From the NCBI GenBank assembly GCA_021650915.1, contig CP091279.1, forward strand, positions 3,450,001 through 3,482,000: a stretch of DNA of 32,000 nucleotides, written 5' to 3'. A program made the translations under genes and the position numbers. The notes beneath the pieces are model-generated. The model was not told where the DNA came from. It did not search any database and saw only the letters and a list, made by a program, of their open reading frames with translations. Below are positions 6,131 through 27,816 of the stretch, in pieces; the stretch's first letter is position 1; each line of letters opens with the position of its first letter. Source of the stretch: Candidatus Brocadia sp. Its GTDB lineage: Bacteria > Planctomycetota > Brocadiia > Brocadiales > Brocadiaceae.

Positions 6131-6347
6131 GTAACTATTCAGCGTACTTTCGCTCACAATCACTACGAGTGAACAAAATATTGATGCTGTAATCCCGAAG
6201 GGATGTCATGATTATAGAAAAAAACGCACCGCCATATTCAACCCCGCAGGGGTAAAATATCGGGAACATAGCGATACTATGCCACCACTACGGGGTTAAC
6301 TATAATTGCATGACACTATAATGTTACTGTGTAAAAACTGGTTTTTT
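6124..6347 (-). repeat. Composite repeat: module R1 (6124-6217) + module C (6191-6340), reverse orientation
   Basis: R1 is near-identical to 13741-13835 and is inverted at 15446-15505. C matches 14050-14190, 27650-27795 and 15287-15445. Confidence 0.85.
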
Positions 6348-6397
6348 GCAACCCTATTTACCCCTTATCAGAAGGTACTGTTTATTTATAAGAAAAG

Positions 6398-6647
6398 GAT
6401 TGCTTCGCTTCACTCGCAATGACAACGTACCGTATCTCATCAAAGGCATAGCCAGCGTCATTGCGGGTACTCCAGTCTGATAAACGCCGGGAGAATAGCG
6501 CCCGCATGTCATCCAAGACAGAGTCAGCGTCAGTGCGAGGGTCTTGTCCGAAGCAATCTCCCGCCTTCACAACGGGGATTTGGTTGCGGCTGTGCTGCGC
6601 TATGAATAATATCGTCTTGTAGGGGCAGGTTTCAAACCTGCCCCTAC
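6398..6647 (+). repeat. Module B long hairpin ('gattgcttcgcttcactcgcaatgaca' ... 'gcgagggtcttgtccgaagcaatc') + 'ggttgcggctgtgctgcgc' module + palindrome gtaggggcaggtttcaaacctgcccctac (6619-6647)
   Basis: Module B recurs at 19489-19629 and, reversed, at 13836-13975. The 29-nt palindrome recurs at 22201-22231. Confidence 0.8.
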
Positions 6648-6746
6648 ACGGTATGGTACACATCGCTATTATTGGGATTTTTCAAAAAACCCGTGGTAAG
6701 ACCTTTCTGTGGAGCATGCTCCAGTGCATCAATTTTTATTTTTCAC

Positions 6747-6775: not shown

Positions 6776-6826
6776 GTTCTCGCTGTTCTCTCTGTTCTCT
6801 CTGTTCTCTCTGTTCTCTCTGTTCTC
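6776..6826. repeat. 9-bp tandem repeat (gttctctct) x ~5.7
   Basis: gttctcgct gttctctct gttctctct gttctctct gttctctct gttctc. It produces the ENRENREN artefact in ORF 6773-7228. Confidence 0.95.
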
Positions 6827-6847
6827 ATGAGTACAATTATATAACGA

Positions 6848-6995
6848 TAAAGGCAAACCCTGAGTGATCAGGGGGCGCAAAGTAACAGGGTCTTTTGCAG
6901 GGGCGTATTGCATACGCCCTTGTTTGTCCGATAAAAAGACAGCCTTACTGCCGAAGGTAAAGATTTTTGAAAAATCGGTGGTAGGGCTTTTTTTG
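6848..6995 (+). promoter_or_regulatory. Candidate c-di-GMP-I (GEMM-I) riboswitch aptamer (6848-6956) with overlapping intrinsic terminator (6941-6995)
   Basis: GGCAAACC (6852-6859). Hairpin CCCUGA-GUGA-UCAGGG (6858-6873). GGCGCAAAG (6874-6882). AGG+GUCUUUU (6887-6896) pairs with AAAAGAC-AG-CCU (6934-6945). UGCCGA at 6949-6954. Terminator AGCCUUACUGCCGA (6941-6954) pairs with UCGGUGGUAGGGCU (6975-6988), followed by a U-run. Motif recall is from memory; no covariance model was run. Confidence 0.6.
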
Positions 6996-7169: not shown

Positions 7170-8923
7170 ATGACGGTTGATAAAAAATCCCGAACAGCGC
7201 CATCGTTGCTGAGCGCTATGGTATTCATACTTGCAGTTTTTATAATAACTTTATTCGGATCAGGGGTTACCTATGGACTGAACCATAGTGGTAATATTGG
7301 CAGTAATGAGACATGGTATGCCGCCGATAACCCCCATGTTGTTACGGCGAGTATACAGGTACACAACAATGCCACACTAACGATCGAACCTGGATGTGTG
7401 GTGAGGTTTTTTCCTGGGACAACCCTTTACTTTGGATATAGCAGTGGGGCTGCATTGAAGGCGGTGGGAACGAGCGTCAATCCCATCACCTTCACCTCAA
7501 ATGCCGCTTCCCCTGCGCCCGGAGACTGGAGGGGCATCCTTTTCTTCAATCACACTGATGATGCAGAGACGATTATGGACTATTGCACGGTGGAGTACGG
7601 CGGGAATGGTGGCGAAAACTCCAACATCTATTGCAACGGAGCCTCGCCCGCCATCAAAAATTGCACAATGCGGTATTCTGATGGTTATGCAATGAGCTTT
7701 GGCAGCAACGACCTGGACGGCAATGTGACGGGGAATACCGGCAGCGATAACGGGGTAAATGGTATGGAGGTGCGACAAGGAGATATAACCTCAAGCCGTA
7801 CCTGGATGCCGCAAGGCCTCTACGTTACGGTAACGTCACGGGTACACGTACATTACAACGGCATATTAACGATATCCCCTGGGTGTGTGGTGAAGTTTGA
7901 TCCTGGGGCTTACCTTTATGTAGGATATAGCGGCGGATCGGGTACGCCCCCTGCTTTAAAGGCAGTGGGAACGAGCGGCAATCCCATTACGTTCACCTCA
8001 AATGTCGCTTCCCCTGCGCCCGGTGACTGGAGGGGCATCCTTTTCTTCAATCACACTGATGATGCAGAGACAATTATGGACTATTGCACGGTGGAGTACG
8101 GCGGGAATGGTGGAGAAAACTCCAACATCTTTTGCACTGAAGCCTCGCCCACCATTCAGAATTGCACAATGCGGTATTCTGATGGTTATGCAATGAGCTT
8201 TGGCAGCAACGACCTGGACGGCAATGTGACGGGGAATACCGGCAGCGATAACGGGGTAAATGGTATGGAGGTGCGACAAGGAGATATAACCTCAAGCCGT
8301 ACGTGGATGCAGCAAGGCCTCTACGTGATTGTATCATCATGGGTACACGTACATTACGAAGGCATATTAACGATATCCCCTGGGTGTGTGGTGAAGTTTG
8401 ATCCTGGGGCCTACCTTTTTGTAGGATATCACGCCGCATCGGGTACGCCCCCTGCTTTAAAGGCAGTGGGAACGAGCGGCAATCCCATCACCTTCACCTC
8501 AAATGCCGCTTCCCCTGCGCCCGGTGACTGGAGAGGCATTCTTTTCTTCAATCACACTGATGATGCAGAGACAATTATGGACTATTGCACGGTGGAGTAC
8601 GGCGGGAATGGTGGAGAAAACTCCAACATCTTTTGCACTGAAGCCTCGCCCACCATTCAGAATTGCACAATGCGGTATTCTGATGGTTATGCAATGAGCT
8701 TTGGCAGCAACGACCTGGACGGCAATGTGACGGGGAATACCGGCAGCGATAACGGGGTAAATGGTATGGAGGTGCGACAAGGAGATATAACCTCAAGCCG
8801 TACCTGGATGCCGCAAGGCCTCTACGTTACGGTAACGTCACGGGTACACGTACATTACAACGGCATATTAACGATATCCCCTGGGTGTGTGGTGAAGTTT
8901 GATCCTGGGGCTTACCTTTATGT
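7170..8923 (+). CDS. Secreted beta-helix-repeat surface protein, 5' part (gene interrupted by IS at 8924; the track ORF runs on to 9002 inside the IS)
   Basis: RBS aaggagg at 7153-7159. Signal-peptide-like N-terminus (SLLSAMVFILAVFIITLF). 167-aa repeats (..[41 protein letters not shown]..). The frame continues exactly at 12023 once the IS and one ATGT copy are removed. Confidence 0.85.
7350..8923 (+). repeat. Tandem 501-bp (167-codon) coding repeats, about 3 units, continuing after the IS at 12023-12260
   Basis: Antisense ORFs recur with period 501 (7497/7998/8499 and 7501/8002/8503). The units are near-identical at the nucleotide level. Confidence 0.9.
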
Positions 8924-9125
8924 AGTGTCTGAACGAAAACGCACTTTTTGTAAAAGTGCGAGGTCGATTTTCTATTTACCAATAGATAATTTTAAGATTT
9001 GAGATTAGGGTTTTTGGCAAAAATACTGTTCTTTTACATATTTCCCTTGTTTTCCCCTTTATTTTAGCCTTGTCTGGGCGTACCTGCCTCCCGGCAGACT
9101 GTTTTTCTTCGTGTTTTTTGCTTGC

Positions 9126-10588
9126 TTAGGCGGCTTTTCGCAACTTTTCGCACTGCTTCCGTGCCTTCTCCTGCAGCACGTTTCCCAGCTTGTGCAAATT
9201 CGCAGCTAACACGCCCATTGCACAATATCTTTTAAAGGCATGCAGCCCTTTGTCCGGACACCTATCCAAGCCGTGATGCTCCAAACGATTGATATCCGAT
9301 TCTACCGCCGAGTGCTTGTGCCTTAGCTTCTTAAATGTCTTACCCGATTCCTCTTCCTGTTCCGCCTTATTCTTCTTGCCCTTCTTGGGAAGGATTACCT
9401 CTGGTATATACAAACTCAGCAACTCTTTATTCTCTTTCTTGTAAAAACCTTTATCAAAACTTATACTCTTTATTGTGCCTTCTCCGTAACGGCTCAACAA
9501 CCTATCTGCCAATGGAATTACCAACGATACATCCGCCTGTTTTTCTCCTACCACATGGTCCACGATGAAACCCCACTGATCGCTTGCTACCAGAATATTA
9601 TGTCCCAACTCTACCCTTTTGTTTGACTTGCCTTTGTACAGCCACTCCGTATGCGGCTCAAACAACGAATGAACCTTTTCTGCCGCCGGTATTACCTCAT
9701 CCCGGATCACCCTTCTCTCCACCAGGTCTATCTGTTTATTCAACATCCCGTGAAAATACTCCAGTGTCCCTATTTTCCCTGCATGCTTGTCTACCTGGTT
9801 CGTCGTTAGCACCTTTTCGTAGATGGCTAACAGACTCGCTCCTATCTTTTCACTCAAACCCCTCGATAATTCCAAGTAACTCCTCACATGCTCTTCCTTG
9901 TTTTTCCCCCCGCTGCTTGACGCCTTTGCGCTTATCCTCATCAGCTTTTTTAACTCTCTCCTCCAATATTTGCTCTTGCGCCATCCTTTCCCCGCCAGGA
10001 TGCCTTCCTCTATTGCATCCTCTATCATGTCCAGACTCTTGCGTCCCGCATCCCACAATAAATTCATATCGGCGGAAAGTGTACATTCGTCTCTAACACA
10101 TACGTATCCACCTTAATACACAGTCCTTCGTCCTTTTTTTTAACCAACTGATGCCCCGATGATATCACCACTTCATTTATCTGCCTGAGGGTCTCCTCAT
10201 CCAACAATCTTATATTGTCCTTGATGCTCTGCATCGAAAAAACCTTCGCCTCTCCAAATGCCGTCTCAACCCCCATTATCTGCCTGATAAGTTTGTGATG
10301 GTTGGCAAAATCCTCCAACCTGTCATAATCGGCATCTAACCCTAATCTTACCACCGACAACACCAAAATATGCCATAAATCCATCCCATATCTTCCCGTC
10401 TTTTTCTTCCCCTTCGTTACCTTCGCCTCTAATATCCGGAATACCTCCTCGTTCAACTCCGGTGTAACATAGATATGTTGCAACGCCCTCAGTATCGGTG
10501 GTAGCTCATCTCGACTCTTTATTGGCAGTTTTACCCCTGAAATGGGTATGATGCCAAGCTTCAATTGCTGCTCAAATCTCTTTCTCAT
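9126..10588 (-). pseudogene. DDE transposase (IS4/IS5/IS1182-like, DDE_Tnp_1-type) split by a frameshift at about 10064-10070
   Basis: ORFs 10064-10588 and 9126-10067 overlap by 4 nt. The junction reads ..VDTYVLETNVHFPPI* / MNLLWDA.., where such transposases usually read HFPTDxxLL. Total span is 1463 nt, one short of a multiple of 3. C-terminal motif: HSAVESDINRLEHHGLDRC. Confidence 0.8.
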
Positions 10589-10612
10589 CTTCTATCGAAT
10601 GTCCTTTGGCTA

Positions 10613-11855
10613 GTATAACGTTTCACAAAAACATTGACAAATACTATGTTAGTAGATCGAATTTTTTCCAGCGATGAATAACGGGGGCTTCATTAATTTC
10701 AGATATTCCTTTTAATATTCTATTTCGCAATTCGACAACAGAATCAACCCTAATGTGCTTTAAGAAGGTTCGGGCCATTTTACCAAATAGTGTTTCCACC
10801 AGATTAAGCCAGGAGCCGTGCTTTGGAGTATGAACATAAACGAATCTATTTGGCCGGCTTGATAGATATCGCAAGGTCTCTTTTGAAATATGCGCAGAAT
10901 GATTGTCTAAAACAATTCGTATCGTATATGCTGATGGATAAAAGGCATCCAGTTCTTTTAAAAGCTCGATAAATTCTTTGCTTCTGTGACGTTCATGAAC
11001 CTGGGCTATTACATGCCCTGTATGCAAATCTAAAGCGGCTAATATGCTCACGGTTCCCAAGCGTTTATATTCATAATCTCGGAGAACCTGAGGACATTTA
11101 CCTGCTATAGGTTTTAAGTCTGGTGCAATATTTTTTATTGCCTGAACACCGGGCTTTTCATCTACGGAAACGGTAATCGTTCGATTGCCAGAAATTTTTT
11201 CTGAAGCATCTTGTTTGTTTTGCAGGTTAACCTCTTGGTAAACCATAAGGACGTCTTCCATTTTACGCTTAAATTCTGGATCCCGTTTCTCTAAATAATA
11301 GCGTATCTTATGTGGTTGTACGGGATGTTCTTTTAATATTCTATGAATCGTGGCTTTTGAGGCCTTTGAAAGACACGCATATCCCTCCTGGGGGGCATAT
11401 TTTCTTGTGTGTTTTGCTAAAAGGCTTTGCGTCCACAGTTCTGCTGCATATCCATGGTCTTTGGGTTTTGTGCATGCAATATTTACAACCCACATCTTTG
11501 CATTCTCGGTAATTGTGGGCTCTTTGGGCCGATGATATTTATCTCTTAGCGCTTCTTCCGGGCCTAACGCCAATGCCTTTTCAATGTATTTATAAATGGT
11601 TTCCCTGCTTAGCCCTATCGATTTTTGAATTGCTGTTATAGATTCTTCTTGATACTTCTTAAGAAGCACTTGTGCTCTCTTTACTTCCCGAAGAGGAGCA
11701 GTGCGAGATCGAGCAGTGTTTTCTAATTTGCATAACTGTTCCGGACTAAGAGATAATTTTGGCTTTTTACTAATTCCCGACACCTTGGCCTCCTTTTTTA
11801 AGGCCAATATAAATGCCGGATACTTATTTGTCAAGGTTTTTATGAAACGTTATAC
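10613..11855 (-). mobile_element. IS630-family insertion sequence nested inside the IS4/IS5-like element, TA target duplication
   Basis: About 32-bp terminal inverted repeats gtataacgtttcacaaaaacattgacaaata (10613-) and gtataacgtttcataaaaaccttgacaaata (complement of -11855). TA flanks both ends (10611-10612, 11856-11857). Confidence 0.85.
10644..11834 (-). CDS. IS630-family DDE transposase (apparently intact)
   Basis: 396 aa. N-terminal HTH-like region and a DDE triad in contexts VSVDEKPGVQA / IVLDNHSAHIS / SWLNLVETLFGKM. Confidence 0.9.
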   Translation of the reverse strand: MTNKYPAFILALKKEAKVSGISKKPKLSLSPEQLCKLENTARSRTAPLREVKRAQVLLKKYQEESITAIQKSIGLSRETIYKYIEKALALGPEEALRDKYHRPKEPTITENAKMWVVNIACTKPKDHGYAAELWTQSLLAKHTRKYAPQEGYACLSKASKATIHRILKEHPVQPHKIRYYLEKRDPEFKRKMEDVLMVYQEVNLQNKQDASEKISGNRTITVSVDEKPGVQAIKNIAPDLKPIAGKCPQVLRDYEYKRLGTVSILAALDLHTGHVIAQVHERHRSKEFIELLKELDAFYPSAYTIRIVLDNHSAHISKETLRYLSSRPNRFVYVHTPKHGSWLNLVETLFGKMARTFLKHIRVDSVVELRNRILKGISEINEAPVIHRWKKFDLLT

Positions 11856-12018
11856 TAGTGGGTTAATGAACCGAATATTTGGACTCTTTATACCCAGAAT
11901 CCCTTCATTTTCGCCATATTTTACCCTTTTACCCGAAAAAATTCAATGACTTTCATGAACATTTTTCACCAGCTTCTCCTTACTTTACAGGGCTCTGGGG
12001 GGTTTCCGTTCAAACACT

Positions 12019-13673
12019 ATGTAGGATATAGCGGCGGATCGGGTACGCCCCCTGCTTTAAAGGCCGTGGGAACGAGCGGCAATCCCATCACCTTCACCTC
12101 AAATGCCGCTTCCCCTGCGCCCGGTGACTGGAGAGGTATCCGTTTCTCCGATCACACCAATGATGCAGAGACGATTATGGACTATTGCACGGTGGAGTAC
12201 GGCGGGCATAGTGGCGAAAACTCCAACATCTATTGCAACGAAGCCTCGCCCGCCATTCAGCGTTGTCTTATGAGAAATTCCGATGGTAATGGAATTCTTG
12301 CGACAGGTAGCGGCGCACATCCCTTGATCTCTTGTTCAACGATAAGAAATAACAACTATGGTGTCTATGCACAAAGCAGCGCCAATCCAACCGTAGTCAA
12401 TTGCAATATTCATGGCAACACCAGTTACGGCATCTACAATGCCACCAGTTCCCTTACCCTCGCCGCTGCGGATAACTGGTGGGGACACACCAGCGGCCCA
12501 TCCGGCGTGGGGCCAGGTTCCGGCGATGCCGTGAGCAACTCTGTGGACTATACCCCATGGATGGCCTCATTTGACAGTTGTCTTGAGACGATTGTTTTAA
12601 GCCCGGCGTCTGCAACGAATCCGATCGGCAGTCAGCATACGGTGACGGCAACCGTGACAAATGACGCCCTTGAGCCCGTTGCTGATATTGCCGTATCATT
12701 CGAAATTGTCTTTGGCCCGCATGCCGGGGCAACGGGGACAGATACGACCGATTCCAACGGACAGGCGACATTTACCTACACAGGGACGCTGGAAGGCACG
12801 GACATAATTGAGGCGAGCTTTACCGATTTCCACGGCAGGACCATAACATCAGGTCCGGTCACAAAGACGTGGGAATCGTCATCCTCGACTCCGACTCCGA
12901 CTCCGACGCCAACGCCTTCACCAACGCCGACACCGGAGCCAACACCAAGTCCAACTCCGTCTCCGACACCAAGTCCGACCCCGAGTCCGACACCAACCCC
13001 TGCAGCATGTCCTTGTCCGGACGCAGAGGCGTGCTATTCCTTTGACGAAGGGAATGGGAATGTGGCTGGCGACTCGTCGGGCAATGGTCGTAACGGCGCA
13101 ATCGTTGGCGCGGTCTGGACCATCGGAAATGACGGCAGTGGTCTGAGTTTTGACGGGGTTGACGATGAGGTATCAGTCCCGACCATGAACAGCGAGGAAG
13201 TCTCCTTTAGCGCATGGTTCTATAAGAATGCAAATGATCCGTTGGGCTTTGATTTCATCTTCGACGGAATCAGGATGCATTCTAATTCACAATTGAATGA
13301 AGGATTTGCTCTCAAATTCTTAAAGAGGAATCCAAACGTAGTGGGTTTTGCTGTTGTAACACAAAACTCAAACGGAAGAAGGAAGCTGAGGACTGCGTCA
13401 TACGATCTGGGTAATTCCGTAGGTAGCTGGTATCATGTTGCAGGCACGTACGACAAGGCCACCGGCGAGCAGAAGTTGTATGTCAATGGGCAGCTGGTCA
13501 GGATGGTAAGACACCCGGCAGGAAACGGCATCGTTCCGCTGACCTCTTATCCTGGCATGAAAATCGGGAATTCCTTATCGAGAAAAGGTTGTTTCGATGG
13601 AGTCATCGATGGGGTTTGTATTTCCCATCGGGCATTGACCGAGCAGGAGGTGCTGGACATTTTTAACAATTAA
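12019..13673 (+). CDS. Surface protein, 3' part: last beta-helix repeats, Big-like domain, Pro/Thr/Ser linker, LamG/ConA-like lectin domain
   Basis: Host sequence resumes at 12023 (..[28 protein letters not shown]..). The first ~25 codons of track ORF 11946-13673 are IS sequence. Also seen: ..[20 protein letters not shown].. (Ig-like), a PT/PS linker at about 12888-13001, and ..[13 protein letters not shown]...WYHVAGTYD...LYVNGQLV (LamG-like). Confidence 0.85.
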
Positions 13674-13682
13674 CCTGATGAT

Positions 13683-13713
13683 CCGGAGAGCGAAGTGCCC
13701 CTTCGCTCTCCGG
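13683..13713 (+). terminator. Hairpin terminator of the surface-protein gene
   Basis: Perfect 13-bp stem ccggagagcgaag / cttcgctctccgg with a 5-nt loop, 10 nt after the stop. The trailing GTTTAT is only weakly T-rich. Confidence 0.55.
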
Positions 13714-13740
13714 GTTTATCGTATTACCGCGCAAAATCTT

Positions 13741-14195
13741 TCTTTTTTGTAACTATTCAGCGTGCTTTCGCTCACAATCACTACGAGTGAACAAAATATT
13801 GATGCTGTAATCCCGAAGGGATGTCATGATTATAGCCTGGCGCAGCAGCACAGCCGCAACCAAATTTCCTTTATGAAATCGGGGAGATTGCTTCGGAAAA
13901 GGCCCTCGCAATGACAGCGACCATGCACTTTGATGGCACACTGCATGTTGTCATTGCGAGTGAAGCGAAGCAATCTTTCACTCATAAAAAACGGCACCTC
14001 CTGAAAGAGGTTTGTGAAAAAACTTACAAAAAAAAGAAGTTTTTATACAGTAATACTATAGTGTCATGCAATTATAGTTAACCCCGTGGGGGTGGCATAG
14101 TATCGCTATTTTCCCGATATTTCACCCCTGCGGGGTTGAATATGGTGGCGCGTTTTTTCTATAATCATGTCATCCCTTCGGGATTTTTCAAAAAG
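13741..14195. repeat. Largest composite repeat locus: R1 (13741-13835), B reversed (13836-13975), A reversed (13985-14060), C (14050-14190)
   Basis: Each module matches copies at 6124-6610, 15130-15535, 19403-19629 and 27622-27800. ORF 13753-13941 is a translation artefact of the repeat. Confidence 0.9.
14136..14165 (+). promoter_or_regulatory. Repeat-borne promoter-like element TTGAAT-N18-TATAAT
   Basis: TTGAAT at 14136-14141, TATAAT at 14160-14165, followed by catgtcatcccttcgggatt (C(UUCG)G hairpin). The same arrangement occurs in the copies at 27742-27771, 6211-6241 (minus) and 15307-15337 (minus, TTAAAT). Confidence 0.35.
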
Positions 14196-15068
14196 CTAAA
14201 TTGTCACGAGCTTTTTCATTTCCTCAGACAAGGGCAACGGCCTGAAGCCCAATGAACGGGCCTTTGTGTTGTCAAGTGAGACGTCCGGCGGTCTGGGTGC
14301 CGCCATAATGACCTCTTTTTGCCTGGAGGGTATTAACCTGGCCGCTGAGATGTTAAGGGTGTTCATCAGCATCGCTCCAAACTCATACCGGGAGATACGC
14401 TCATTGCCGCCGATATGGAGGGGGCCGTGTACTTTTTCAAGGGACAGAAAAATTCCTGACGCCGCTGTGTCTGCGCTTACCGGAGTTCTGAATTCATCGG
14501 TAAAGAGCTGCAATTCCCTGCCTTCGCGCATCGCCGCTATCATGGGCTGAATGAAGCTTGTGGCGCCGGGCCCCGAAATACCAAACATGAGGGAGAGGCG
14601 GCAAACCGCAGTCATGGGATGGCGTTTCATCATGCCTTCCTCAGCCAATGCCTTCTGTTCACCGTAAAAGTTGACCGGACAAACGGGGTCTTCTTCACGA
14701 TACGGAGGGTTTAAGCCATCGAAGACCATGTCGGTTGAAGTAAAAACACAAGGGATTCCATAGTCTGCACAAAGGCCGGCAATATTGACTGAAGCATCCA
14801 CATTCACCCTTTGAGATTCTGCCCGATGGGTTTGACAAAAATTCAAACTCGTTTTCGCTGCGGTGTGAATTACCGCATCAGGACGTACCGTCTGAAAGAG
14901 CTTCTTCAATGCCGCAAAGTCCGTCAAATCGACTTTTGTGATTTTTACACCGGCAATAGCTTCAACGTGGGAAAAGGCCGTTCCGGTGATTTCCCATGTT
15001 TGCCTTGCAGCCTGGCAAATATTCCATCCCAAAAATCCACAGGCGCCCGTAACGAGCAATTTTTTCAT
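14196..15068 (-). CDS. RmlD-like NAD(P)-dependent sugar reductase/epimerase (dTDP-4-dehydrorhamnose reductase family)
   Basis: Start reassigned to the ATG at 15068 (MKKLLVTGACGFLG, Rossmann motif). YGEQK catalytic Y-x3-K. The upstream 85 codons of track ORF 14196-15323 are repeat sequence. Confidence 0.85.
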   Translation of the reverse strand: MKKLLVTGACGFLGWNICQAARQTWEITGTAFSHVEAIAGVKITKVDLTDFAALKKLFQTVRPDAVIHTAAKTSLNFCQTHRAESQRVNVDASVNIAGLCADYGIPCVFTSTDMVFDGLNPPYREEDPVCPVNFYGEQKALAEEGMMKRHPMTAVCRLSLMFGISGPGATSFIQPMIAAMREGRELQLFTDEFRTPVSADTAASGIFLSLEKVHGPLHIGGNERISRYEFGAMLMNTLNISAARLIPSRQKEVIMAAPRPPDVSLDNTKARSLGFRPLPLSEEMKKLVTI

Positions 15069-15129
15069 AGAGGTGTGTTTAATGCTGGCAAATGCTTTAA
15101 CCGGACAAAGATCGATAATGTCTGATTTT

Positions 15130-15286
15130 ATAGTCTTGCTGGATAAAATCTTTCTTTTTTTGCAAGGTTTTACAACCCCCTTCACCCCCTTTCCTAAGGG
15201 GGACTTAGTTGTAGTTTTTCTAAGGGGGAATTGGTTGCGGCTGTGCTGCGCTATGTAACCATTCAGCGAAAACTGCAAGACCGGAA
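15130..15286. repeat. Modular repeat (A + duplicated 'ctaaggggga' hairpin module + 'ggttgcggctgtgctgcgc')
   Basis: Matches 1597-1702, with the taaggggga segment duplicated. Confidence 0.8.
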
Positions 15287-15445
15287 AATCCCGAAGGGAT
15301 GTCATGATTATAGAAAAAAGCACACCACCATATTTAACCCCGTAGGGGTGAAATATCGGGAAAATAATGATACCATGCCACCCCTATACGGGGTTCACCA
15401 TACTTGCATAACAACATGCTATAATCATGACATCCCTTCGGGATT
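15287..15445. mobile_element. 159-bp MITE-like unit (module C) with perfect 27-bp terminal inverted repeats
   Basis: aatcccgaagggatgtcatgattatag (15287-15313) is the exact reverse complement of ctataatcatgacatcccttcgggatt (15419-15445). The interior matches the module C copies. Confidence 0.55.
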
Positions 15446-15535
15446 CTGTAATCAATATTTTGTTTACCCGTAGTGATTGTGGGCAAAAGTACGCTGCATA
15501 GTTACGATTTTATTGCGATTTTTCAAAAGTATTAC
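15446..15535 (+). repeat. Module R1, inverted relative to the 6124 and 13741 copies
   Basis: ctgtaatcaatattttgtttacccgtagtgattgtgggcaaaagtacgctgcatagttac versus the reverse complement of 13745-13812. Confidence 0.8.
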
Positions 15536-15585
15536 CTTTTTGCTTTTGCTATAGTTCGTTAGCTCCTTGTATCCGTTGCAGCGTT

Positions 15586-17529
15586 TCATTCAAGCACCGA
15601 CTCCAATTCCGCGTGCACTTCTTCCCATCGGGTATAGAGGGCGCTCAATTCCTGGGTAATCGCCTTATACTGTTTATTGATTTCAACCGATTTTTCTTTG
15701 TCGTTATACAGCGCCGGGTCTGAAAAGATGTGATCGAGTTCCTTTTTTTGCGCTTCCCGTGAGGCAATTTTTTCTTCTATGTTTTGCACCTCTTTAGTGA
15801 GCTTTCTTTTCCTGGCATGGTGCTCTTTTTTGAGCAGATACTGTTGCTTTTGTGAATTGGTTTCTTCAGGCTTACGGTACGAGCCTTCCGTTGCCCTGCC
15901 TTCCGCAGTTTCTCCAAGCAAATCCAACGTCTTTTTTTCGAGAAAGTCGCGCATGCTTCCCAGGTGGGTGATGATATTCTGATTTTTTAATTCGTAAACC
16001 TTCGAGACAAGGCCGTCGAGGAAGTCCCTGTCGTGAGATACAATCAGCAGGCTCCCTGCGTAATCCAGCAGGGCATCCTTGAGGATCTTTTTGGTCGTGA
16101 TGTCGATATGGTTGGTTGGTTCATCCAGGATGAGAAAATTCGTGGGTTTGAGCAGCATCTTGGCGAGAGACAGCCGCGATTTTTCGCCACCGCTCAGGAC
16201 GTGCACACCCTTAAAGACGTCGTCGCCGGAAAAGAGAAAGGCGCCCAGGATATGGCGGGTATGGGGGATCATGGAAAGGGGGGCAACCGACTCGATTTCC
16301 TGGAGTACCGTATTCCGGGTATTCAATTTTTCAGCGTGTTCCTGGGCAAAATAATCAAAGAGCACGTTGTGCCCCATCCTGATCGTTCCGGTGTGCGGTT
16401 GCTCAATACCGGCGATGATACGGAGGAGGGTAGATTTCCCTGATCCGTTCTGCCCAACGAGGGCAACCTTTTCTCCCCGTTCAAGGGAGAGGCAAATATC
16501 CTGGAAGATCGGTCTTCCGTCATATTTATGTGAAACATCGTTCACCTCCAGTACGGATACGCCGCTTTGTTTCGAAGGGGGAAACCGGAATCTGACCTGT
16601 TCTGTCGCGTTGTCCGGCAAGGTTTCCTTCTCCATTTTTTCGAGCATAAGGATGCGGCTCTGTACCTGCGATGCCTTGGTGTTCTTTGCCCGGAAACGTT
16701 CAATGAACCGCTCGACTTCTTTGATCTTTTTCTGCTGATTGACGTAACGCGCCCGTTGTAATTCCATCCGCTTTTCTTTTTCCATCTCATAGAAGGAGTA
16801 ATTTCCACCGTATTCATGGATTTTTCCCTTCTCCAGTTCCCAAATCCTGGTAACATTGCGGTCAAGAAATGCCCGGTCGTGTGATATGAGAATCAATCCC
16901 CCTTTAAATCCCCTGAGATATTCTTCCAGCCAGAGGATTGAATCGATGTCCAGATGGTTCGTTGGTTCATCCAGGAGGAGGAGATTGGGCTCCTGCAGCA
17001 ACAGCCGGGAAAGGGCAATCCGCATCTGCCATCCGCCGCTGAACGTACCGATATCTCTTGTAAACTCTGATTCCTTGAACCCCATGCCTTTTAAGACCTT
17101 GCCCGTTTCAGCTTCAATCTTTGCGCTGTTGACCACCTCAAGCTGGTGCTGCAGATGCGCGTAATTGTCGAGGAGCACCTCATGGTCTTCACCTTGTATC
17201 GATGGGTCTTCCAATCGGGTGTGGATCGTCTCCATCTGATGTTTCAGATGGAGAATATCCTCAAAGGCAGAACTGGCCTCTTCAAATACGGTCTTTTTCC
17301 TGAAGGCAAAACCTTCCTGGGGGAGATAGCCGGTGTTTGCATCCTTTGCACAAACAAGACTGCCGCCGCCTGGTTCAATCAGTTTGCAGATGAGCCTGAA
17401 GAGGGTGGATTTCCCGGCGCCATTGGGTCCGATCAGACCGATCCGATCATTTCTCCTGATGTGGAGGGAAACGTTGTCCACAATGGTTTTTGATCCAAAG
17501 GTAAGACTGACATCATTCAGGCGAATCAT
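15586..17529 (-). CDS. ABC-F family ATPase (two ABC domains plus C-terminal coiled-coil tail)
   Basis: Two Walker A motifs (GPNGAGKST, GQNGSGKST) and two LSGG signatures. Start reassigned to the ATG at 17529 (MIRLNDVSLTF), which overlaps the upstream stop as ATGA. Confidence 0.9.
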   Translation of the reverse strand: MIRLNDVSLTFGSKTIVDNVSLHIRRNDRIGLIGPNGAGKSTLFRLICKLIEPGGGSLVCAKDANTGYLPQEGFAFRKKTVFEEASSAFEDILHLKHQMETIHTRLEDPSIQGEDHEVLLDNYAHLQHQLEVVNSAKIEAETGKVLKGMGFKESEFTRDIGTFSGGWQMRIALSRLLLQEPNLLLLDEPTNHLDIDSILWLEEYLRGFKGGLILISHDRAFLDRNVTRIWELEKGKIHEYGGNYSFYEMEKEKRMELQRARYVNQQKKIKEVERFIERFRAKNTKASQVQSRILMLEKMEKETLPDNATEQVRFRFPPSKQSGVSVLEVNDVSHKYDGRPIFQDICLSLERGEKVALVGQNGSGKSTLLRIIAGIEQPHTGTIRMGHNVLFDYFAQEHAEKLNTRNTVLQEIESVAPLSMIPHTRHILGAFLFSGDDVFKGVHVLSGGEKSRLSLAKMLLKPTNFLILDEPTNHIDITTKKILKDALLDYAGSLLIVSHDRDFLDGLVSKVYELKNQNIITHLGSMRDFLEKKTLDLLGETAEGRATEGSYRKPEETNSQKQQYLLKKEHHARKRKLTKEVQNIEEKIASREAQKKELDHIFSDPALYNDKEKSVEINKQYKAITQELSALYTRWEEVHAELESVLE

Positions 17530-18266
17530 TTTATTCCGCCATATACCGCTTCCCGGTATTCCTTCCAGAAACATTCAGCCGTGCGGAATCCGGCCTCTGC
17601 AATAATCTGAAGGTCGTCCATGAGGAGCAGCAGGTTGTCGCCATCTTTTTTCTCTTTATCAGACAGGGTTGAGGAAATTTCATCCAGGGACTTCTCCTCG
17701 TGCCTGATCTGACGCGTTCTCTCCTGTATCCCCTGATGATGCAACCGCCGGAATCTGGCCTCAAGAACGGCATCGGAGGTCTTAAAAACATCGCAATTTA
17801 CAAACCAGCCATGCGGTCGTAAGAGGGAGTGAACATACCTGATGAGCGTAAGCTTTTCTTCCCGGTATAAATGATGGAGGGCGAGAGAAGACACCACGGC
17901 ATCGACAGGAGCAAGAGTTCCCAGCTTTTTCGGTAACTCCTGGAATGGAGAGACATGGAAGGTGACGCGTTCAAGGTGGTTGTGAAGCCTTACTTTAGCC
18001 TTTTCTATCATAAGGGCTGCTGCGTCAACGGCAATAATCGTTGCATGGGGAAATGTTTCGGTGAGCTTGTGAGAGAGGTAGCCGGTGCCGGCGCCCAGGT
18101 CTAAAAAACGTACCCGTTCCGTCCTGTCAAAGGGCAATATCTCGCATACAATGGACGCCATTTTCACACGGTTCGGATGCCAGATGTCCATGTCGGCATC
18201 ATAGGAAGCAACGGTATCGGAGTTATTAAAGGCGTAAATCGTTTCTCTTAGAGTGTCTGTTTTCAT
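17526..18266 (-). CDS. Class I SAM-dependent methyltransferase
   Basis: LDLGAGTGYLS motif I. ATG at 18266 is preferred over TTG at 18290. The stop overlaps the ABC-F start. Confidence 0.8.
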   Translation of the reverse strand: MKTDTLRETIYAFNNSDTVASYDADMDIWHPNRVKMASIVCEILPFDRTERVRFLDLGAGTGYLSHKLTETFPHATIIAVDAAALMIEKAKVRLHNHLERVTFHVSPFQELPKKLGTLAPVDAVVSSLALHHLYREEKLTLIRYVHSLLRPHGWFVNCDVFKTSDAVLEARFRRLHHQGIQERTRQIRHEEKSLDEISSTLSDKEKKDGDNLLLLMDDLQIIAEAGFRTAECFWKEYREAVYGGIK

Positions 18267-18289
18267 AGGCAGTGGACCATAAAAATGCA

Positions 18290-19222
18290 ATGGCAGATTA
18301 TTTATTGTGCGATTATAATAAAAAACTCATGAAAAGTAAATCCACAAGAGACCCACGAAAAGATAAAAAGAAAGATTGTACTTCCGAACCGGTATGCTCC
18401 GGGAAGCGGCTGACGCAGGCAGCGGTACGAAAATTCCGGGAAATGATTTACCGGCATTACCGGAGACATGGCCGCAGCCTTCCCTGGAGAATGACGCACA
18501 ACCCGTATTATATCCTCGTCTCAGAAATTATGCTCCAGCAGACCCAGGTACAGAGGGTTATGGGGAAGTATGAGCCATTTATCCGTGCATTTCCCGATTT
18601 TTCAAGCCTTGCCAGGGCATCGCTCCGCACGGTACTTCGGGAATGGCAGGGGTTGGGCTACAACCGGCGGGCAATAGCCCTGAAGCAGATCGCCCAAAGG
18701 GTTATGAAAGAATTTCAGGGAAAGCTACCGTCATCGGTGGAAGTATTGATAACGTTTCCCGGAATCGGCGAAGCAACTGCTGCCTCAATTGCTGCCTTTG
18801 CATTTCATACACCGACGGTTTTTATTGAGACGAATATACGGCGGGTATTTATCCACGGCTTTTTCCACGACAGAACAAACATCAGGGACGCTGAAATCCT
18901 TCCCCTCGTAGAACAGACCCTGGATACGTCGCACCCCCGTGAGTGGTATTATGCCCTTATGGATTATGGAGTAATGCTGAAGCAGAAGCAGGTAAATCCC
19001 AACAGGAGAAGCGCCCATTATCAAAAGCAGTCCCCTTTTCATGGCTCCAACAGGCAGGTCCGGGGAATGATTCTGAAAGCACTTACTGCTGAATCATATC
19101 TTTCAGAACAGGAGATTGCACAAAGGCTTCAAATACCTTTTGAAAAGATAAAAAATAATCTTGATCAGTTGGAAAAAGAGGGGTTTATTGAAAGAAAAGG
19201 AAATAGAATGAGAGTGGTTTGA
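18290..19222 (+). CDS. MutY/EndoIII-like HhH-GPD DNA glycosylase, atypical (no Fe-S cysteines, winged-helix-like tail)
   Basis: SEIMLQQTQV, LGYNRRA and FPGIGEATAASI (HhH) motifs. Start is ambiguous (GTG 18272, ATG 18290 or ATG 18329). Confidence 0.75.
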   Translation: MADYLLCDYNKKLMKSKSTRDPRKDKKKDCTSEPVCSGKRLTQAAVRKFREMIYRHYRRHGRSLPWRMTHNPYYILVSEIMLQQTQVQRVMGKYEPFIRAFPDFSSLARASLRTVLREWQGLGYNRRAIALKQIAQRVMKEFQGKLPSSVEVLITFPGIGEATAASIAAFAFHTPTVFIETNIRRVFIHGFFHDRTNIRDAEILPLVEQTLDTSHPREWYYALMDYGVMLKQKQVNPNRRSAHYQKQSPFHGSNRQVRGMILKALTAESYLSEQEIAQRLQIPFEKIKNNLDQLEKEGFIERKGNRMRVV

Positions 19223-19402
19223 AATTTCAACGGAAGGTATAAAAAACCTACGCTGGGGTTATTTTCTCACCGTCTTCTCAGAGAAAAGAAGTATTACAGG
19301 ACGATACGATAAATCCTGACGTCCATTTGTTTAGTGCCCTGTGAGATAGCATAGTACAAAAGAGGCTGGAGATTGCGAGGCATATGATTTGCGCTTTTCC
19401 GT

Positions 19403-19629
19403 TATAGTATTACCGTATAAAATCTTTCTTTTTTTTGTAAGTTTTTTCACAAATCCCTTTCAGGAGGTACCGTTTTTTATGAGTGAAAGATTGCTTCGCT
19501 TCACTCGCAATGACAACGTGCAGTGTGGTGCTATCAAGGTGCAGATCGCTGTCATTGCGAGGGTCTTGTCCGAAGCAATCTCCCGCTTTCACAACGAGGA
19601 ATTGGTTGCGGCTGTGCCGCGCTATAAAT
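19403..19629. repeat. Modular repeat (A + B long hairpin + 'ggttgcggctgtgccgcgc')
   Basis: Reverse complement of 13836-14060. ORFs 19389-19709, 19410-19592 and 19483-19737 are artefacts of it. Confidence 0.85.
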
Positions 19630-19687
19630 TTTCTCTTGAAAAAGTTTCACCTGGAATCGTCTTCCGGACTTATTGTGGATACTATTC

Positions 19688-20305
19688 ATGCATCTGCGGT
19701 GGAAAATAGGTATTTGTCTCTCTTTTCTTACCCTTGAGTTCCTGGGTTGTTACGTGCCTCCGGTTTCCAGGCCCACCCCGGCCGTAAGGCCTCGCGAAAG
19801 CGCCGGTATGCCGGTGAAGCCACAGAAAAAGGAAGAGCCTTATATCGTTAGCCAGCTTGATTCTTATTCTGTAAGAAACTGGCGATACATTGTTATTCAC
19901 CATAGCGCCTCAGCGTCCGGTAGCGCCGCTCAATTTGATAAATACCACAGGGAAAAAAGACGGTGGGAGAATGGCCTGGGCTATCATTTTGTAATCGGTA
20001 ATGGAAACGGCGCCCCTGACGGAAAAATTGAGATTGGCAATCGGTGGATAAGTCAGATAGATGGCGCCCATGCCGGCGTCCAGGAATACAATCACTATGG
20101 CATAGGAATCTGCCTGGTGGGGAATTTTAATGAATCGTACCCAACGGCGGCACAGATGGCATCCCTTTCAGCCCTGGTAGAGTATTTGCAGAACAGATGC
20201 CGGATTCCTGCTGAGCGTGTGATCATGCACCGGAACTGCAGGGAGACGGACTGTCCGGGGCGGAAATTTCCTTATTATAAGCTGCTTGCAAATACCTATT
20301 TCTAG
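19688..20305 (+). CDS. N-acetylmuramoyl-L-alanine amidase (Amidase_2/PGRP fold), possibly a lipoprotein
   Basis: YIVIHHSA...GYHFVIGNG...AHAG...GIGICLVGNF...HR motifs. ATG at 19688. N-terminal hydrophobic stretch ends in FLGC. Confidence 0.85.
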   Translation: MHLRWKIGICLSFLTLEFLGCYVPPVSRPTPAVRPRESAGMPVKPQKKEEPYIVSQLDSYSVRNWRYIVIHHSASASGSAAQFDKYHREKRRWENGLGYHFVIGNGNGAPDGKIEIGNRWISQIDGAHAGVQEYNHYGIGICLVGNFNESYPTAAQMASLSALVEYLQNRCRIPAERVIMHRNCRETDCPGRKFPYYKLLANTYF

Positions 20306-20332
20306 CCAGCCTCTTTCAGAAAGTTTGGCTGG

Positions 20333-20506
20333 CTACGGTTTTTCCTTGTGCCGTAAAAAGTCATCCATTTCAGCCTGGATACGAGGGGTATCGATCTCCT
20401 TGGCCTTATTGTAGCACGGGATACAGATGTCCCCCTTTGTGGTGGTCATCTTTTTCCATTCGTCTTTCTCCCCGAGAAATTGGCCGCATTTCCAGCAATT
20501 TGCCAT
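20333..20506 (-). CDS. Small zinc-ribbon protein (57 aa)
   Basis: MANCWKCG...CIPC (two CxxC pairs). aaggaa lies about 8 nt upstream of the ATG at 20506. The longer track ORF would overlap the upstream gene. Confidence 0.5.
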   Translation of the reverse strand: MANCWKCGQFLGEKDEWKKMTTTKGDICIPCYNKAKEIDTPRIQAEMDDFLRHKEKP

Positions 20507-20528
20507 GGGCAGTTCCTTTATCGTTTCA

Positions 20529-21305
20529 TCAAGAGTGAATGAATCTTTCCACAAATCTTTCCACAAGATAGGCAAGATATTCTATGTCGATGTATGCTTC
20601 TGCGCTGCTGTCTAAAAAAAGCTTGCAACTGGCCGCAAACTCTTCATCCGCATCCCAGAAGCACAAATATAAGGGTATCCTGGGTAAGAGGTCAAATTGG
20701 CAGATATAGTCTGCCTTCATTTTCCCCTGAGTTTCCCTGCCACCCAGTTCTTTGCAGCGCGTCTTTAGTCCGTTCATCTTGTTATTGAACGCTGCCGCAA
20801 CCTTCTCTTCCGCGCTCCGTTGAAATGCCTTTACATGTGAGGCAGTATGAGGGAAGTATCCCAGGGTAACCCAGTTGCCCGTGAAAGGTTTGTTTCCTTT
20901 TCTCCGTATATAGTCATAGATAATAATCTTTGACCACGAGTCAGAGCAGTAGGCGTCATTTTCAAATAACCCTTCCTTACGCATCTCATACGGCTTGTTC
21001 AGCATGGTGAGTTTTATCATTTCCCCATCCTTGCCGGTAGCAAAATGTCCCCCGGTGGCAATGGCCGCCTCTTTGAAATTCGTGCGTTTGGCCTCGGCTT
21101 CTAATTCGCTGCTCACCCGGTCATAATTGTCTTCCATGGTTACGGCTGGTTTTGGGGTATCCAATTCCCGGTTTTCTTTCGTGACATAGGGGCAGGCATC
21201 TATCCTGAGTTGGGCGCTTTGTACCTTCAGTGCAAAGGCCATGCACGTAGGAACCCCGCATTTACCACAATTTGTCCTGGGTAGTTTTTTATATATCTCA
21301 AGCAT
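20529..21305 (-). CDS. Fe-S-binding protein: N-terminal CFeSP-type 4Fe-4S motif fused to a DUF3786-like domain
   Basis: LPRTNCGKCGVPTCMAFA at the N-terminus. The remainder resembles DUF3786 proteins, from memory. Confidence 0.7.
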   Translation of the reverse strand: MLEIYKKLPRTNCGKCGVPTCMAFALKVQSAQLRIDACPYVTKENRELDTPKPAVTMEDNYDRVSSELEAEAKRTNFKEAAIATGGHFATGKDGEMIKLTMLNKPYEMRKEGLFENDAYCSDSWSKIIIYDYIRRKGNKPFTGNWVTLGYFPHTASHVKAFQRSAEEKVAAAFNNKMNGLKTRCKELGGRETQGKMKADYICQFDLLPRIPLYLCFWDADEEFAASCKLFLDSSAEAYIDIEYLAYLVERFVERFIHS

Positions 21306-21407
21306 CGAATTTCAATCTTACTGGGTAGGGTGGGCATTGCCCACCAAACATCACTTGTTCACGCTGTTTATTTTTCTGGTGGGTGATGCCCCACACCTTT
21401 TGTAGTT

Positions 21408-21444
21408 TACAAAAAGGCACGGACAAGCGGAGCTTGCCCGTGCC
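21408..21444 (-). terminator. Intrinsic terminator downstream of rubrerythrin
   Basis: The minus strand reads ggcacgggcaagc-tcc-gcttgtccgtgcc followed by tttttg, 86 nt after the stop. Confidence 0.6.
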
Positions 21445-21529
21445 ATGACAAACTCCGCTTAATTAAACACGCATGTGTGCATCTCCTTCAGTAAAGGAGG
21501 GTTGGTTGCTGCTTGTTGCATGAGGAGGT

Positions 21530-22021
21530 TTAACTAACCTTCGTAAACCTGGACTTGGGTGCCCCGCAGATGGGACAGGTATCGGGGGCTGCCTTCTCAA
21601 CCGTATTTCCGCAGACCTGGCAGACATAATAATCCACGTCCTCGTTTTTCCCCAGATTTTGCAATGCCTTTTGATAAAGGCCGGCATGGATATTTTCTAC
21701 CTTATTGGCAATTTCAAAGCTCCGGAGGGCCTCTTTATTTCCTTCCTTTTTGGCCTCTTCAATAAACTGGGGATACATTTTGGTGAACTCGTACGTTTCT
21801 CCTTCAACGGCTTCCTGGATATTTTCCTTGGTAGTTTTAATACCGCCCAGTACCCGTAAGTGGTTGTGGGCATGCACCGTTTCGGCCTCGGCCGCAGCAC
21901 GAAAGAGTTTTGCCACCTGCTTGAAACCCTCCTCATCAGCCTTTTTGGCAAAGGCAAGGTATTTCCTGTTGGCCTGCGATTCCCCTGCAAAGGCGTCCTT
22001 CAAATTATCTTTTGTCGACAT
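21530..22021 (-). CDS. rbr: Rubrerythrin
   Basis: Ferritin-like diiron motifs (E..ANRKY, EAETVHAHNH, E...E) and a C-terminal rubredoxin-like CQVCG...CPICG. Confidence 0.93.
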   Translation of the reverse strand: MSTKDNLKDAFAGESQANRKYLAFAKKADEEGFKQVAKLFRAAAEAETVHAHNHLRVLGGIKTTKENIQEAVEGETYEFTKMYPQFIEEAKKEGNKEALRSFEIANKVENIHAGLYQKALQNLGKNEDVDYYVCQVCGNTVEKAAPDTCPICGAPKSRFTKVS

Positions 22022-22254: not shown

Positions 22255-22325
22255 CTAAAGGGTTACCCTGCGCAGCATGAAAAAAACATTTTTGCTGAAA
22301 ATGTCAAAATATCTTTCGTAAGGTA

Positions 22326-27800: not shown

Positions 27801-27816
27801 ACCAGCGTGTTACAGG

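Follow-up and report, generated by a model that had tools for sequence, protein, structure and literature searches.

Among described systems, the closest to the repeats analysed here are the repetitive extragenic palindromes (REPs), bacterial interspersed mosaic elements (BIMEs) and REPIN-RAYT systems of E. coli and Pseudomonas (Nunvar 2010; Bertels & Rainey 2011; Ton-Hoang 2012), which likewise consist of short tagged hairpin repeats, lie between genes, form long hairpins as inverted dimers, and assemble into mosaic clusters with other motifs. A second likeness is to the miniature derivatives of the IS200/IS605 insertion sequences (palindrome-associated transposable elements), and to the single-strand mechanism of IS608 and ISDra2. 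These likewise lack inverted repeats at their termini; insertion just 3' of a short specific sequence with no clear duplication of the target, and a strand-specific subterminal hairpin a few nt from the right end, would be further traits in common. The repeats in question occur in a 32,000-nucleotide stretch of Candidatus Brocadia sp. (contig CP091279.1, positions 3,450,001 to 3,482,000; this whole stretch is hereafter referred to as the window), where an earlier note, made from the letters alone, had described a modular family of structured intergenic repeats, had implied that these were stable RNA motifs, and could not assign them to any described class. I conclude that they are clusters of discrete hairpin-bearing mobile DNA units, most likely of REP/BIME type, and not RNA genes.

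A repeat search recovered every module named in that note (A, R1, C, B and E) at its loci, far above chance. The 27-nt core of the hairpin h was matched six times, all with no mismatch (two allowed), a 19-mer of E five times (at most two mismatches) and a 24-mer of A five times (at most three), while the number expected from 100 dinucleotide-preserving shuffles of the window was 0.00 for each of the three patterns. The copies are closely similar: positions 6122–6217 and 13740–13835 are 99% identical over 96 nt, and 14017–14194 and 27623–27800 are 91% identical over 179 nt; 13937–14038 is 96% complementary to 19426–19527 over 102 nt, and 6219–6347 is 91% complementary to 14030–14158 over 129 nt. 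The description of a modular, hairpin-rich intergenic family adjoining gene remnants, including an ISH6-like transposase fragment at 27814–27988, holds, and the repeats do produce spurious open reading frames (ORFs), at 6382–6663 on the minus strand and at 15231–15473 and 19389–19709 on the plus strand.

The architecture of the clusters is that of head-to-tail and nested chains of discrete units, and not of one shuffled RNA family. Unit W consists of module A, one or more CCCCC/GGGGG hairpins and E; unit X, of about 220 nt, consists of A, B1, B2 and E; unit Y consists of A, R1 and h; and further types are short GTAAC...h units and a palindromic unit, c. The 27-nt core of h reads CTATAATCATGWC-ATCCC-TTC-GGGAT-T, with a hairpin stem of 5 bp that is separated by 6 nt from a conserved CTATAAT tag, and E is a hairpin GCGGC-NNN-GCYGC with a variable loop, followed by GCTAT. 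Two module sizes had to be revised: C, given as about 150 bp, is an imperfect palindrome of ~104 nt that reaches ~150 nt only with the adjoining 27-nt h, and R1, given as about 90 bp, is ~60 nt plus h. Eleven of the 15 E copies listed possess a G.T wobble (GCGGC...GCTGC), a pair that can form on only one of the two strands. Both right-end hairpins, E and h, stand 5–11 nt from the end of the unit; no clear left-end hairpin was found in module A, and the A ends show no inverted similarity to the E or h ends, such that units W, X and Y have no terminal inverted repeats. The 32 kb contain six identical 27-nt h copies and at least eight g-like hairpins, all intergenic, and h faces both directions within single spacers, as perfect 27-nt inverted repeats. 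Inverted pairings that could form long hairpins are h-c-h', g'-g within c, and B1/B2; the h-c-h' arrangement at 15287–15445 folds as DNA into a single long hairpin (dG of -43.6 kcal/mol, z = -9.9).

These units are insertions, because they are absent at the matching sites in a related strain and in other species, and this presence/absence polymorphism has sharp boundaries. Unit X at 13837–14057 (221 nt) is missing from the cluster downstream of the RmlD-like gene in Brocadia sp. UTAMX2, whose RmlD-like protein is 99% identical to that of the window, while the remainder of the cluster is nearly identical; the empty site reads ...ccATAT/GCTATAATC (a slash marks the junction), and the filled site ...caCTAT/AGTATTAC...GCGCCAG/GCTATAATC. 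At this site there is thus an insertion polymorphism between strains. Similarly, the X unit at 19406–19625 is absent from the orthologous locus of a second Brocadia species (L125), between amidase and HhH-GPD genes, where the gene order is conserved and the RmlD ortholog is 79% identical; the empty ccgTTAC/AAATTTTC corresponds there to the filled TTAT/AG...GCGCTAT/AAATTTTC. In the same species the ABCF-RmlD spacer is 58 nt long, compared to 517 nt in the window, and the whole cluster 15132–15550 is missing. In another Brocadiaceae genome (L069), an X unit has a W unit nested within its hairpin B2. Assembly GCA_000987375.1, which I take to be Candidatus Brocadia fulgida, has a contig, LAQJ01000296, that matches window positions 14000–24529 at 99.9% and encodes an identical UvrB (window 22326–24290); the window is chromosome of B. 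fulgida type. This short-read contig ends at window position 14000, within the cluster at 13.7–14.2 kb, as does the UTAMX2 contig, which suggests a high-copy repeat. Syntenic 12.9-kb regions of two other Brocadia species contain no h and at most one E, B or A, against six h, six E, five B and five A by the same counts in the window, and these near-empty sister regions point to a burst of the units in the fulgida lineage.

Hairpin h is not specific to Brocadia, and is present in Bacteroidota, Chloroflexota, Ignavibacteria and further groups. A scan with its 19-nt core, using one genome per species, identified at least 120 loci, in Brocadiaceae, many Anaerolineae, many Bacteroidota, Ignavibacteria/Melioribacteraceae, Desulfobacteraceae, Calditrichaceae and others. 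On Bacteroidales chromosomes (L061 1398–2115, L051), h forms tandem arrays of four or more copies with a 233-nt period, and one Bacteroidota metagenome-assembled genome (MAG) possesses many 52-nt h tandem arrays at contig ends (L063 29–203, L016, L028, L080); both fit a head-to-tail insertion model. Some taxon labels call for caution: a 1-kb contig binned as 'Fibrobacter succinogenes' (L005) is near-identical around h to a Brevefilum (Anaerolineae) contig (L044), and a contig of a 'Bifidobacterium breve' MAG (L058) also carries h, assignments that are probably binning contamination.

An unbiased all-against-all clustering of the ORFs over the 120 h-bearing loci listed returned one specific family, of ~153 amino acids, in 10 loci from at least three phyla, with members 52–90% identical, which matches PF01797 (1e-23 to 1e-25) and the NCBIfam IS200/IS605 transposase model; the other cross-phylum ORFs near h were ordinary housekeeping genes. 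In 10 of 10 loci h lies within about 150 nt of this Y1 gene, whose flanks contain arrays of AAYCCCGAAGGGRTGACATGATTATAG, inverted relative to the upstream ones where downstream hairpins exist (L085, L092, L117). Reciprocally, three of three Y1 genes picked by protein similarity alone have four h/g hairpins in the 260 nt upstream, and are found in conserved gene neighbourhoods, as with domesticated single-copy genes. The association of h and Y1 has thus been observed at 13 loci (10 through h and three through the protein), in Bacteroidota, Chloroflexota and Calditrichota, with the layout of a REPtron; as in REP-RAYT systems, inverted arrays flank a single-copy Y1 HUH gene in a conserved context. 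In these phyla h behaves like the REP of a RayT/IS200-like gene, and the view that the repeats fit no described class is not supported.

The h-linked proteins are 153–154 amino acids long, with a C-terminal tail of ~30 residues, and possess the motifs [DN]H[VA]H (10 of 10; DHVH in eight, NHVH and DHAH once each), WQ (nine of 10) and Y---Q--HH (10 of 10). By the published signatures of Quentin et al. (2018, PMC6006769), which comprise the motifs DH[IV]H, WQ and Y---Q--HH, a length of ~150 amino acids, a C-terminal domain of ~30 residues and a low copy number, they classify as TnpA_Y1 of subclass 1.2. In that survey the subclass has few copies per genome, is essentially confined to Cyanobacteria and Bacteroidetes, and lacks REPs, whereas here it is flanked by REP arrays, and is found in Chloroflexota and Calditrichota as well. 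No later literature that ties the subclass to repeats was found. More than 8000 homologs of the protein were scored; homologs are named 'REP element-mobilizing transposase RayT' in the JGI and NCBI annotations.

The units and fragments identified in the window, with their boundaries, are as follows.

1600–1698, plus strand: unit W, with A at its left end (AGTATTACTG...), then E2, which is a CCCCC/GGGGG hairpin, and E at its right end (GGTTGCGGCTGTGCTGC), closing with GTTAT; TTAT before.
6122–6215, plus strand: truncated A tail, R1 and h (AATCCCGAAGGGATGTCATGATTAT), the 99% match to the copy at 13740.
6216–6319, plus strand: unit c, starting AG and ending CACTAT; imperfect palindrome with two inverted g-type hairpins (ACCCC-NNN-GGGGT).
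6320–6603, plus strand: unit X, with A, B1, an extra insert of ~95 nt that holds a partial B, B2 and E; ends GCGCTAT.
6655–6690, plus strand: fragment, the 3' half of the h hairpin and a 'tail' repeat (gggatttttcaaaaaac).
13720–13833, plus strand: unit Y, with A (CGTATTACCGCG...), R1 and h; TTAT before, ends GATTAT; begins directly after the hairpin terminator (13683–13713) of the upstream gene.
13837–14057, minus strand: unit X (A-B1-B2-E), 221 nt, the copy absent at exactly that site in UTAMX2.
14058–14160, minus strand: unit c (palindromic g'-g pair).
14161–14207, minus strand: 'tail' plus h unit (GTGACAATTTAGCTTTTTGAAAA-ATCCCGAAGGGAT-GACATGATTAT), overlapping the stop codon of the RmlD-like gene at 14196–14198.
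15132–15254, plus strand: unit W, with A, two CCCCC/GGGGG hairpins and E; TTAT before, ends GCGCTAT.
15255–15311, plus strand: GTAAC...h unit (F-h), a short relative of R1-h.
15312–15417, plus strand: unit c, flanked by h copies at 15287–15313 and 15419–15445 (perfect 27-nt inverted repeat).
15421–15550, minus strand: Y-like unit (degenerate A, R1 and h); CTAT before.
19406–19625, plus strand: solitary unit X (A-B1-B2-E), 220 nt.
22096–22108, minus strand: relic of module A, of which the initial ~14 nt are left (TTAT/AGTATTACTCTTTG).
25807–25823, minus strand: degenerate E-type hairpin (GGTTGCGGCAGAGCCGC).
27622–27662, minus strand: module A remnant (truncated X), abutting the stop codon of ORF 26462–27622.
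27663–27766, minus strand: unit c.
27767–27813, minus strand: 'tail' plus h unit, adjoining a duplicated 5' ISH6-family transposase fragment (27814–27988, a copy of 24447–24622).

The possible fragment of the earlier note at 22096–22108 is thus a genuine truncated start of module A. Two relics come in addition to those described there, the E-like hairpin at 25807–25823 and the 'tail' repeat at 25866–25889 and 25995–26018. A 'tail' repeat (cgTGAcaatttagctttttgaaaaa) encloses the stop codon of the RmlD-like gene, so that the coding sequence either takes its end from the element or overlaps with it there.

A simple rule governs the junctions. All nine A starts examined, including copies from two other Brocadia-family genomes, follow TTAT or CTAT, and 12 of the 18 units in the window end in TAT. 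Because most units start just after TAT and end in TAT, TATAG is found at nearly every junction. The 52-nt tandem array of the Bacteroidota MAG reads ...GATTAT/AGATTG..., and terminates ...GATTAT/TG.

Taken together, I consider it probable, with real room for doubt, that these loci are BIME-like mosaics built by repeated insertion of non-autonomous hairpin units of the REP and IS200/IS605 (HUH Y1) kind. In such a scheme, a Y1 enzyme would recognise the subterminal hairpin on one DNA strand and cut beside the TAT of the tag, and the single-stranded unit would insert just 3' of a TAT-like target, with no need for inverted terminal repeats. A unit ending in TAT would recreate the target, and would thereby give rise to the chains, tandem arrays, nesting and TATAG junctions that the earlier note saw as module shuffling. 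In the B. fulgida lineage, h would have multiplied together with Brocadiaceae-specific companions, which would comprise the A-led units ending in the strand-specific E, the palindromic c, and the units with inverted B hairpin pairs. The discrete, polymorphic units, the junction rule, the covarying hairpin and the link of h to Y1 in other phyla are observed; I infer that the chemistry is that of an HUH enzyme acting on one strand, where exactly the cut would fall, and that a Brocadia-encoded Y1 enzyme is the driver. A hint of such a gene in the Brocadiaceae comes from a literature report on a complete Jettenia genome, in which an IS200-family gene was flagged as exchanged with a Bacteroidota genome.

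Several observations weigh against this reading. The 2018 survey (PMC6006769) reported no REPs for subclass 1.2. Searches by tblastn and profile detected no Y1 gene in the window or in ~35 Brocadiaceae loci, a fraction of a genome, and two protein searches returned no named Brocadia Y1 homolog; ORF 146–478, which was checked as a candidate, gave nothing informative. The association of h with Y1 carries no direct information on the A/E, c and B units. The TAT rule has exceptions: the last letters are CCAG in the X copy at 13837 and ACAT in the c copy at 15417, most GTAAC-led units have no TAT before them, and one A copy in L127 follows TAGC. The three empty or consensus sites read TTAC, ATAT and CAAT, and all three empty/filled comparisons show a one-base difference in the 4 nt left of the insert. 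The two best of these fit a 3-bp TAT target duplication, of the DDE style, equally well; because units also end in TAT, such a duplication is indistinguishable from none at the junctions. The h stems show no strand bias (three G.T against five A.C), an uninformative count.

The last-named duplication belongs to a different scheme, in which the units would be classical miniature inverted-repeat transposable elements moved by a DDE transposase, either of the IS630/Tc1 type (TA duplication) or of the IS5/Harbinger type (3-bp duplication). TA or TAT stands at both ends of most units and can be read as a target duplication, the window holds several DDE insertion sequences and fragments, and the h-c-h' arrangement has perfect 27-nt inverted ends. 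These ends are better explained by two convergent units that meet with their right ends, since c can also have h at a single side (6216–6319, 27663–27766). A begins (TA/GTATTACCGT) much like the terminal repeat that the intact IS630-family copy carries (TA/GTATAACGTT, 10610–10643), but over about 10 nt only, and mobilisation of the A-led units by this family was rejected, the second inverted end being missing. More generally, a duplication of TAT by a DDE enzyme is disfavoured because W, X and Y lack inverted ends, their A end being unrelated to the E or h end; the X copy at 13837–14057 shows no target duplication, with no second TAT on its right; and the strand-specific E hairpin is not needed by a double-strand DDE mechanism. 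I therefore regard the DDE scheme as unlikely, and insertion of REP-like hairpin units by a Y1 enzyme as the better account.

Covariation, a check that the earlier note had proposed, was measured for h-type hairpins in sequences selected by the tag alone, regardless of pairing. At a fixed register, 101 of 126 distinct 30-mers form a perfect 5-bp stem, with variants ATCCC, ACCCC, ACTCC, AGCCC, ACGCC and AACCC. Across 81 distinct 27-mers, 85.9% of cells are paired (71.8% in shuffles), 49 cells show a double change (12 in shuffles), and the covariation score is 0.363 (0.149 in shuffles), a value reached in 0 of 500 shuffles; slid-register controls scored clearly lower. The hairpin covaries, and is therefore under selection, as would be expected equally for an RNA and for the single-stranded DNA site of an HUH enzyme.

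That the units are structured RNA genes or cis-elements (small RNAs (sRNAs), terminators or mRNA stabilisers), spread only incidentally, is nevertheless very unlikely. Besides the covariation, this explanation can draw on the nearest Rfam family, the candidate sRNA Acido-Lenti-1 (14–19 bits); on the reversed module A, which by eye resembles TTGCAA-N16-TACAGT and points into c, which ends with the h hairpin and a T-run (14159–14190, 27765–27796); on a terminator-like hairpin and T-run within X downstream of the RmlD-like gene; and on the four of five E hairpins that are sense to neighbouring genes. Against it, every Rfam family stays below its gathering score at the repeat loci, and the sole match at gathering thresholds in the window is an unrelated c-di-GMP-I riboswitch; neither promoter-like sites (four against 3.0 expected) nor terminator-like sites (two against 2.7) are enriched; h occurs in both orientations per spacer; the units come and go between strains and species at otherwise conserved sites, unlike conserved RNA genes; and the identical 27-mer flanks a transposase gene in other phyla. 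The motifs put forward as stable RNA fail as well: in atcccttcgggat, five base pairs enclose a loop of 3 nt (ATCCC/TTC/GGGAT) in place of the supposed C(UUCG)G tetraloop, a register that gives two pairs only, and the GAAA-capped R1 stem, thought to be kept by G-U pairing, shows no consistent compensation in any candidate R1 hairpin across eight Brocadiaceae copies. A specific candidate, an sRNA gene with A as promoter, c as RNA and h with its T-run as terminator, was dropped given this lack of enrichment and the palindromic c and h, found in both orientations. Matches to plant and animal microRNAs, obtained from Rfam in E-value mode, merely reflect the long hairpin. The observations can be accounted for without a function in RNA, and they contradict one as the main explanation.

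No more probable is the proposal that the units are inert relics of one ancestral element, shuffled by recombination, gene conversion or rearrangement with no present mobilising enzyme. Truncated copies do exist (6122, 22096, 27622), the clusters occupy a break in synteny, where rnpA no longer follows the RmlD-like gene, and adjoin insertion-sequence debris, and no Y1 gene was found in the Brocadia sequence searched; but the copies are highly similar, down to six identical 27-mers, the boundaries are sharp and reused, one whole unit has been precisely gained or lost at strain level, bursts are lineage-specific, and the same h stands beside an intact, conserved Y1 gene across phyla. The case that the earlier note had named as a refutation, fragments of one known insertion sequence or prophage, does not apply either: there are several unit types, there is no single parent insertion sequence (none with A and E ends was found), and there is no phage match, the h core having 0 matches in 2.9 million viral contigs, on which ground a phage origin was rejected.

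If the units are indeed REP-like elements served by a Y1 enzyme, they still differ from the classical systems. In h, the CTATAAT tag is 6 nt from a 5-bp stem, in contrast to classical REPs, whose stem is longer and has GTAG or CGTC at its base; h has neither tetranucleotide there. The h-linked enzyme is of subclass 1.2, with an IS200-like core and Y---Q--HH, and not a class 2 RAYT; its 27-mer is common to several phyla, whereas classical REPs are lineage-specific; and the cognate Y1 gene is known with h in other phyla rather than in Brocadia. Compared to IS200/IS605 elements, the target is TAT-like, in place of TTAC or TTGAT. Module B resembles the CGTC-tagged REPs (of the CGTC and GTAG superfamilies; Di Nocera 2013, PMC3733652), with which it shares a [C/T]GTC tag, an AT start of the stem and head-to-head dimers; it differs in its 5-bp stem (ATTGC/GCAAT) and 12–18 nt loop, compared to 8–9 bp and 4–5 nt, and in its tail (CTC/CTT, compared to CCA). 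B-type hairpins (GTCATTGCGAG...GAAGCAATC) have an extremely wide distribution in metagenomes, and frequently form inverted dimers spaced by about 25 nt. No Y1 gene accompanies them in 120 metagenome loci (L129–L248), and B was rejected as a REPtron repeat on this basis. Small GIY-YIG-like ORFs were found in three of the 120 loci (L185, L191, L194), directly beside the repeat only in L194, and provide a weak lead to a partner protein.

Alongside the h, A and E units, the window contains GTAG REPs, a separate and already described class. Perfect GTAG-tagged palindromic REPs (GTAGGGGCAGGTTTCAAACCTGCCCCTAC) are found at 6619–6647 and 22202–22230, and a GTAG-tagged inverted dimer (GTAGGGGCGAAGCATTTGCC...GGCAAATGCTTCGCCCCTAC) at 25927–25995 is flanked by inverted copies of the 'tail' repeat, the same repeat as found after h at 14184 and 27790.

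The Rfam family Acido-Lenti-1 (RF01687; Weinberg 2010) is a proposed sRNA of unknown function, and is multi-copy, with 89 representatives, some of them 200 nt apart. Its 3' half reads GCUACAUUAUGUC-GGGCU-UCC-AGCCC-U, compared to CUAUAAUCAUGUC-AUCCC-UUC-GGGAU-U for h, and its published seed rows follow the same grammar of a tag, a 5-bp stem and a 3-nt loop. The h sequences score 14–19 bits against this model (best 18.6 bits, E = 0.009, with a 66-nt query), below its gathering score of 37; h has no counterpart to the 5' hairpin in the model, so that the resemblance is confined to the tag and the 3' hairpin, and the phyla differ. The shared grammar and the multi-copy nature suggest that both may be the same kind of DNA element. 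Searches of the literature with the core strings of h and B returned nothing relevant.

In g-h pairs, the conserved spacing from g (…GGGGTTGAAT) to the h tag creates TTGAAT-N18-TATAAT, a near-consensus sigma-70 site (10 of 12 positions) and a possible portable promoter. It is found at 14136–14165 (plus strand), and at the same spot in every g-h pair, pointing outward across the h hairpin; that at 15286–15313 (minus strand) faces the RmlD-like gene, and that at 6190–6217 (minus strand) the FGE-sulfatase gene. Effects on host transcripts, through terminators, 3'-untranslated hairpins and outward promoters, are plausible as secondary consequences of the units.

From this a broader and more tentative reading can be drawn, which as a whole I hold to be possible rather than probable, that the CTATAAT-tagged hairpin constitutes a third REP superfamily, not recognised before, beside GTAG and CGTC. 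It would be shared almost base for base among Bacteroidota, Chloroflexota, Ignavibacteria, Calditrichota and the anammox Planctomycetes, and may be served by the 'orphan' subclass 1.2 Y1 HUH enzymes, for which a partner in DNA was believed to be lacking. The Acido-Lenti-1 'RNA' of Rfam may be a member of this family at the DNA level; in Brocadia, the family may have diversified into TAT-targeting miniature elements that chain together; and its g-h pair may carry the TTGAAT-N18-TATAAT promoter.

The remainder of the window consists of ordinary chromosomal genes of an anaerobe, together with several insertion-sequence copies and fragments. The latter include an intact IS630-family (DDE_3) element at 10610–11858 with 34-bp inverted ends, a DDE_Tnp_1 ORF and an ISNCY-like fragment at 9126–10588, parts of which have 76–79% duplicates at 4616–5019, and an ISH6-family transposase fragment at 24479–25375, whose 5' end is duplicated at 27814–27988, beside the repeat locus. 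The c-di-GMP-I riboswitch (6842–6955, plus strand; 58 bits, gathering score 35) is preceded by five copies of a 9-nt tandem repeat, GTTCTCTCT (6776–6826), and lies upstream of ORF 7170–9002, which has no Pfam match and contains three 501-nt internal repeats that are 94% identical (7450–8751); a fourth copy, 77% identical, is found in the next large gene (12052–12351). In L125 (6877–7090) and L127 (6877–6977), the RmlD-like gene is followed by rnpA, encoding the RNase P protein, and by yidD. The window (13674–14195) and UTAMX2 depart from this order precisely at the 13.7–14.2 kb cluster, after which a convergent beta-helix/Laminin_G gene comes next. Over the 10.5 kb shared with LAQJ01000296 (L001; 14000–24529) there are nine gap openings and no substitutions, as would be expected if one assembly had errors in the length of homopolymers.

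The subclass 1.2 Y1 transposases appear to have their missing DNA partner in this pan-phylum, CTATAAT-tagged REP. If true, this would provide a DNA partner, and thus a testable function, for a widespread Y1 subclass published as having no REPs. It also suggests a mobile DNA repeat behind what Rfam lists as an orphan 'sRNA' motif. A REP that is nearly unchanged across phyla would also run contrary to the strictly vertical, lineage-specific view of REPIN-RAYT systems. For Brocadia itself, the units account for the fragmentation of short-read assemblies, create many spurious ORFs, and mark points of rearrangement in the genomes of organisms important in wastewater nitrogen removal.

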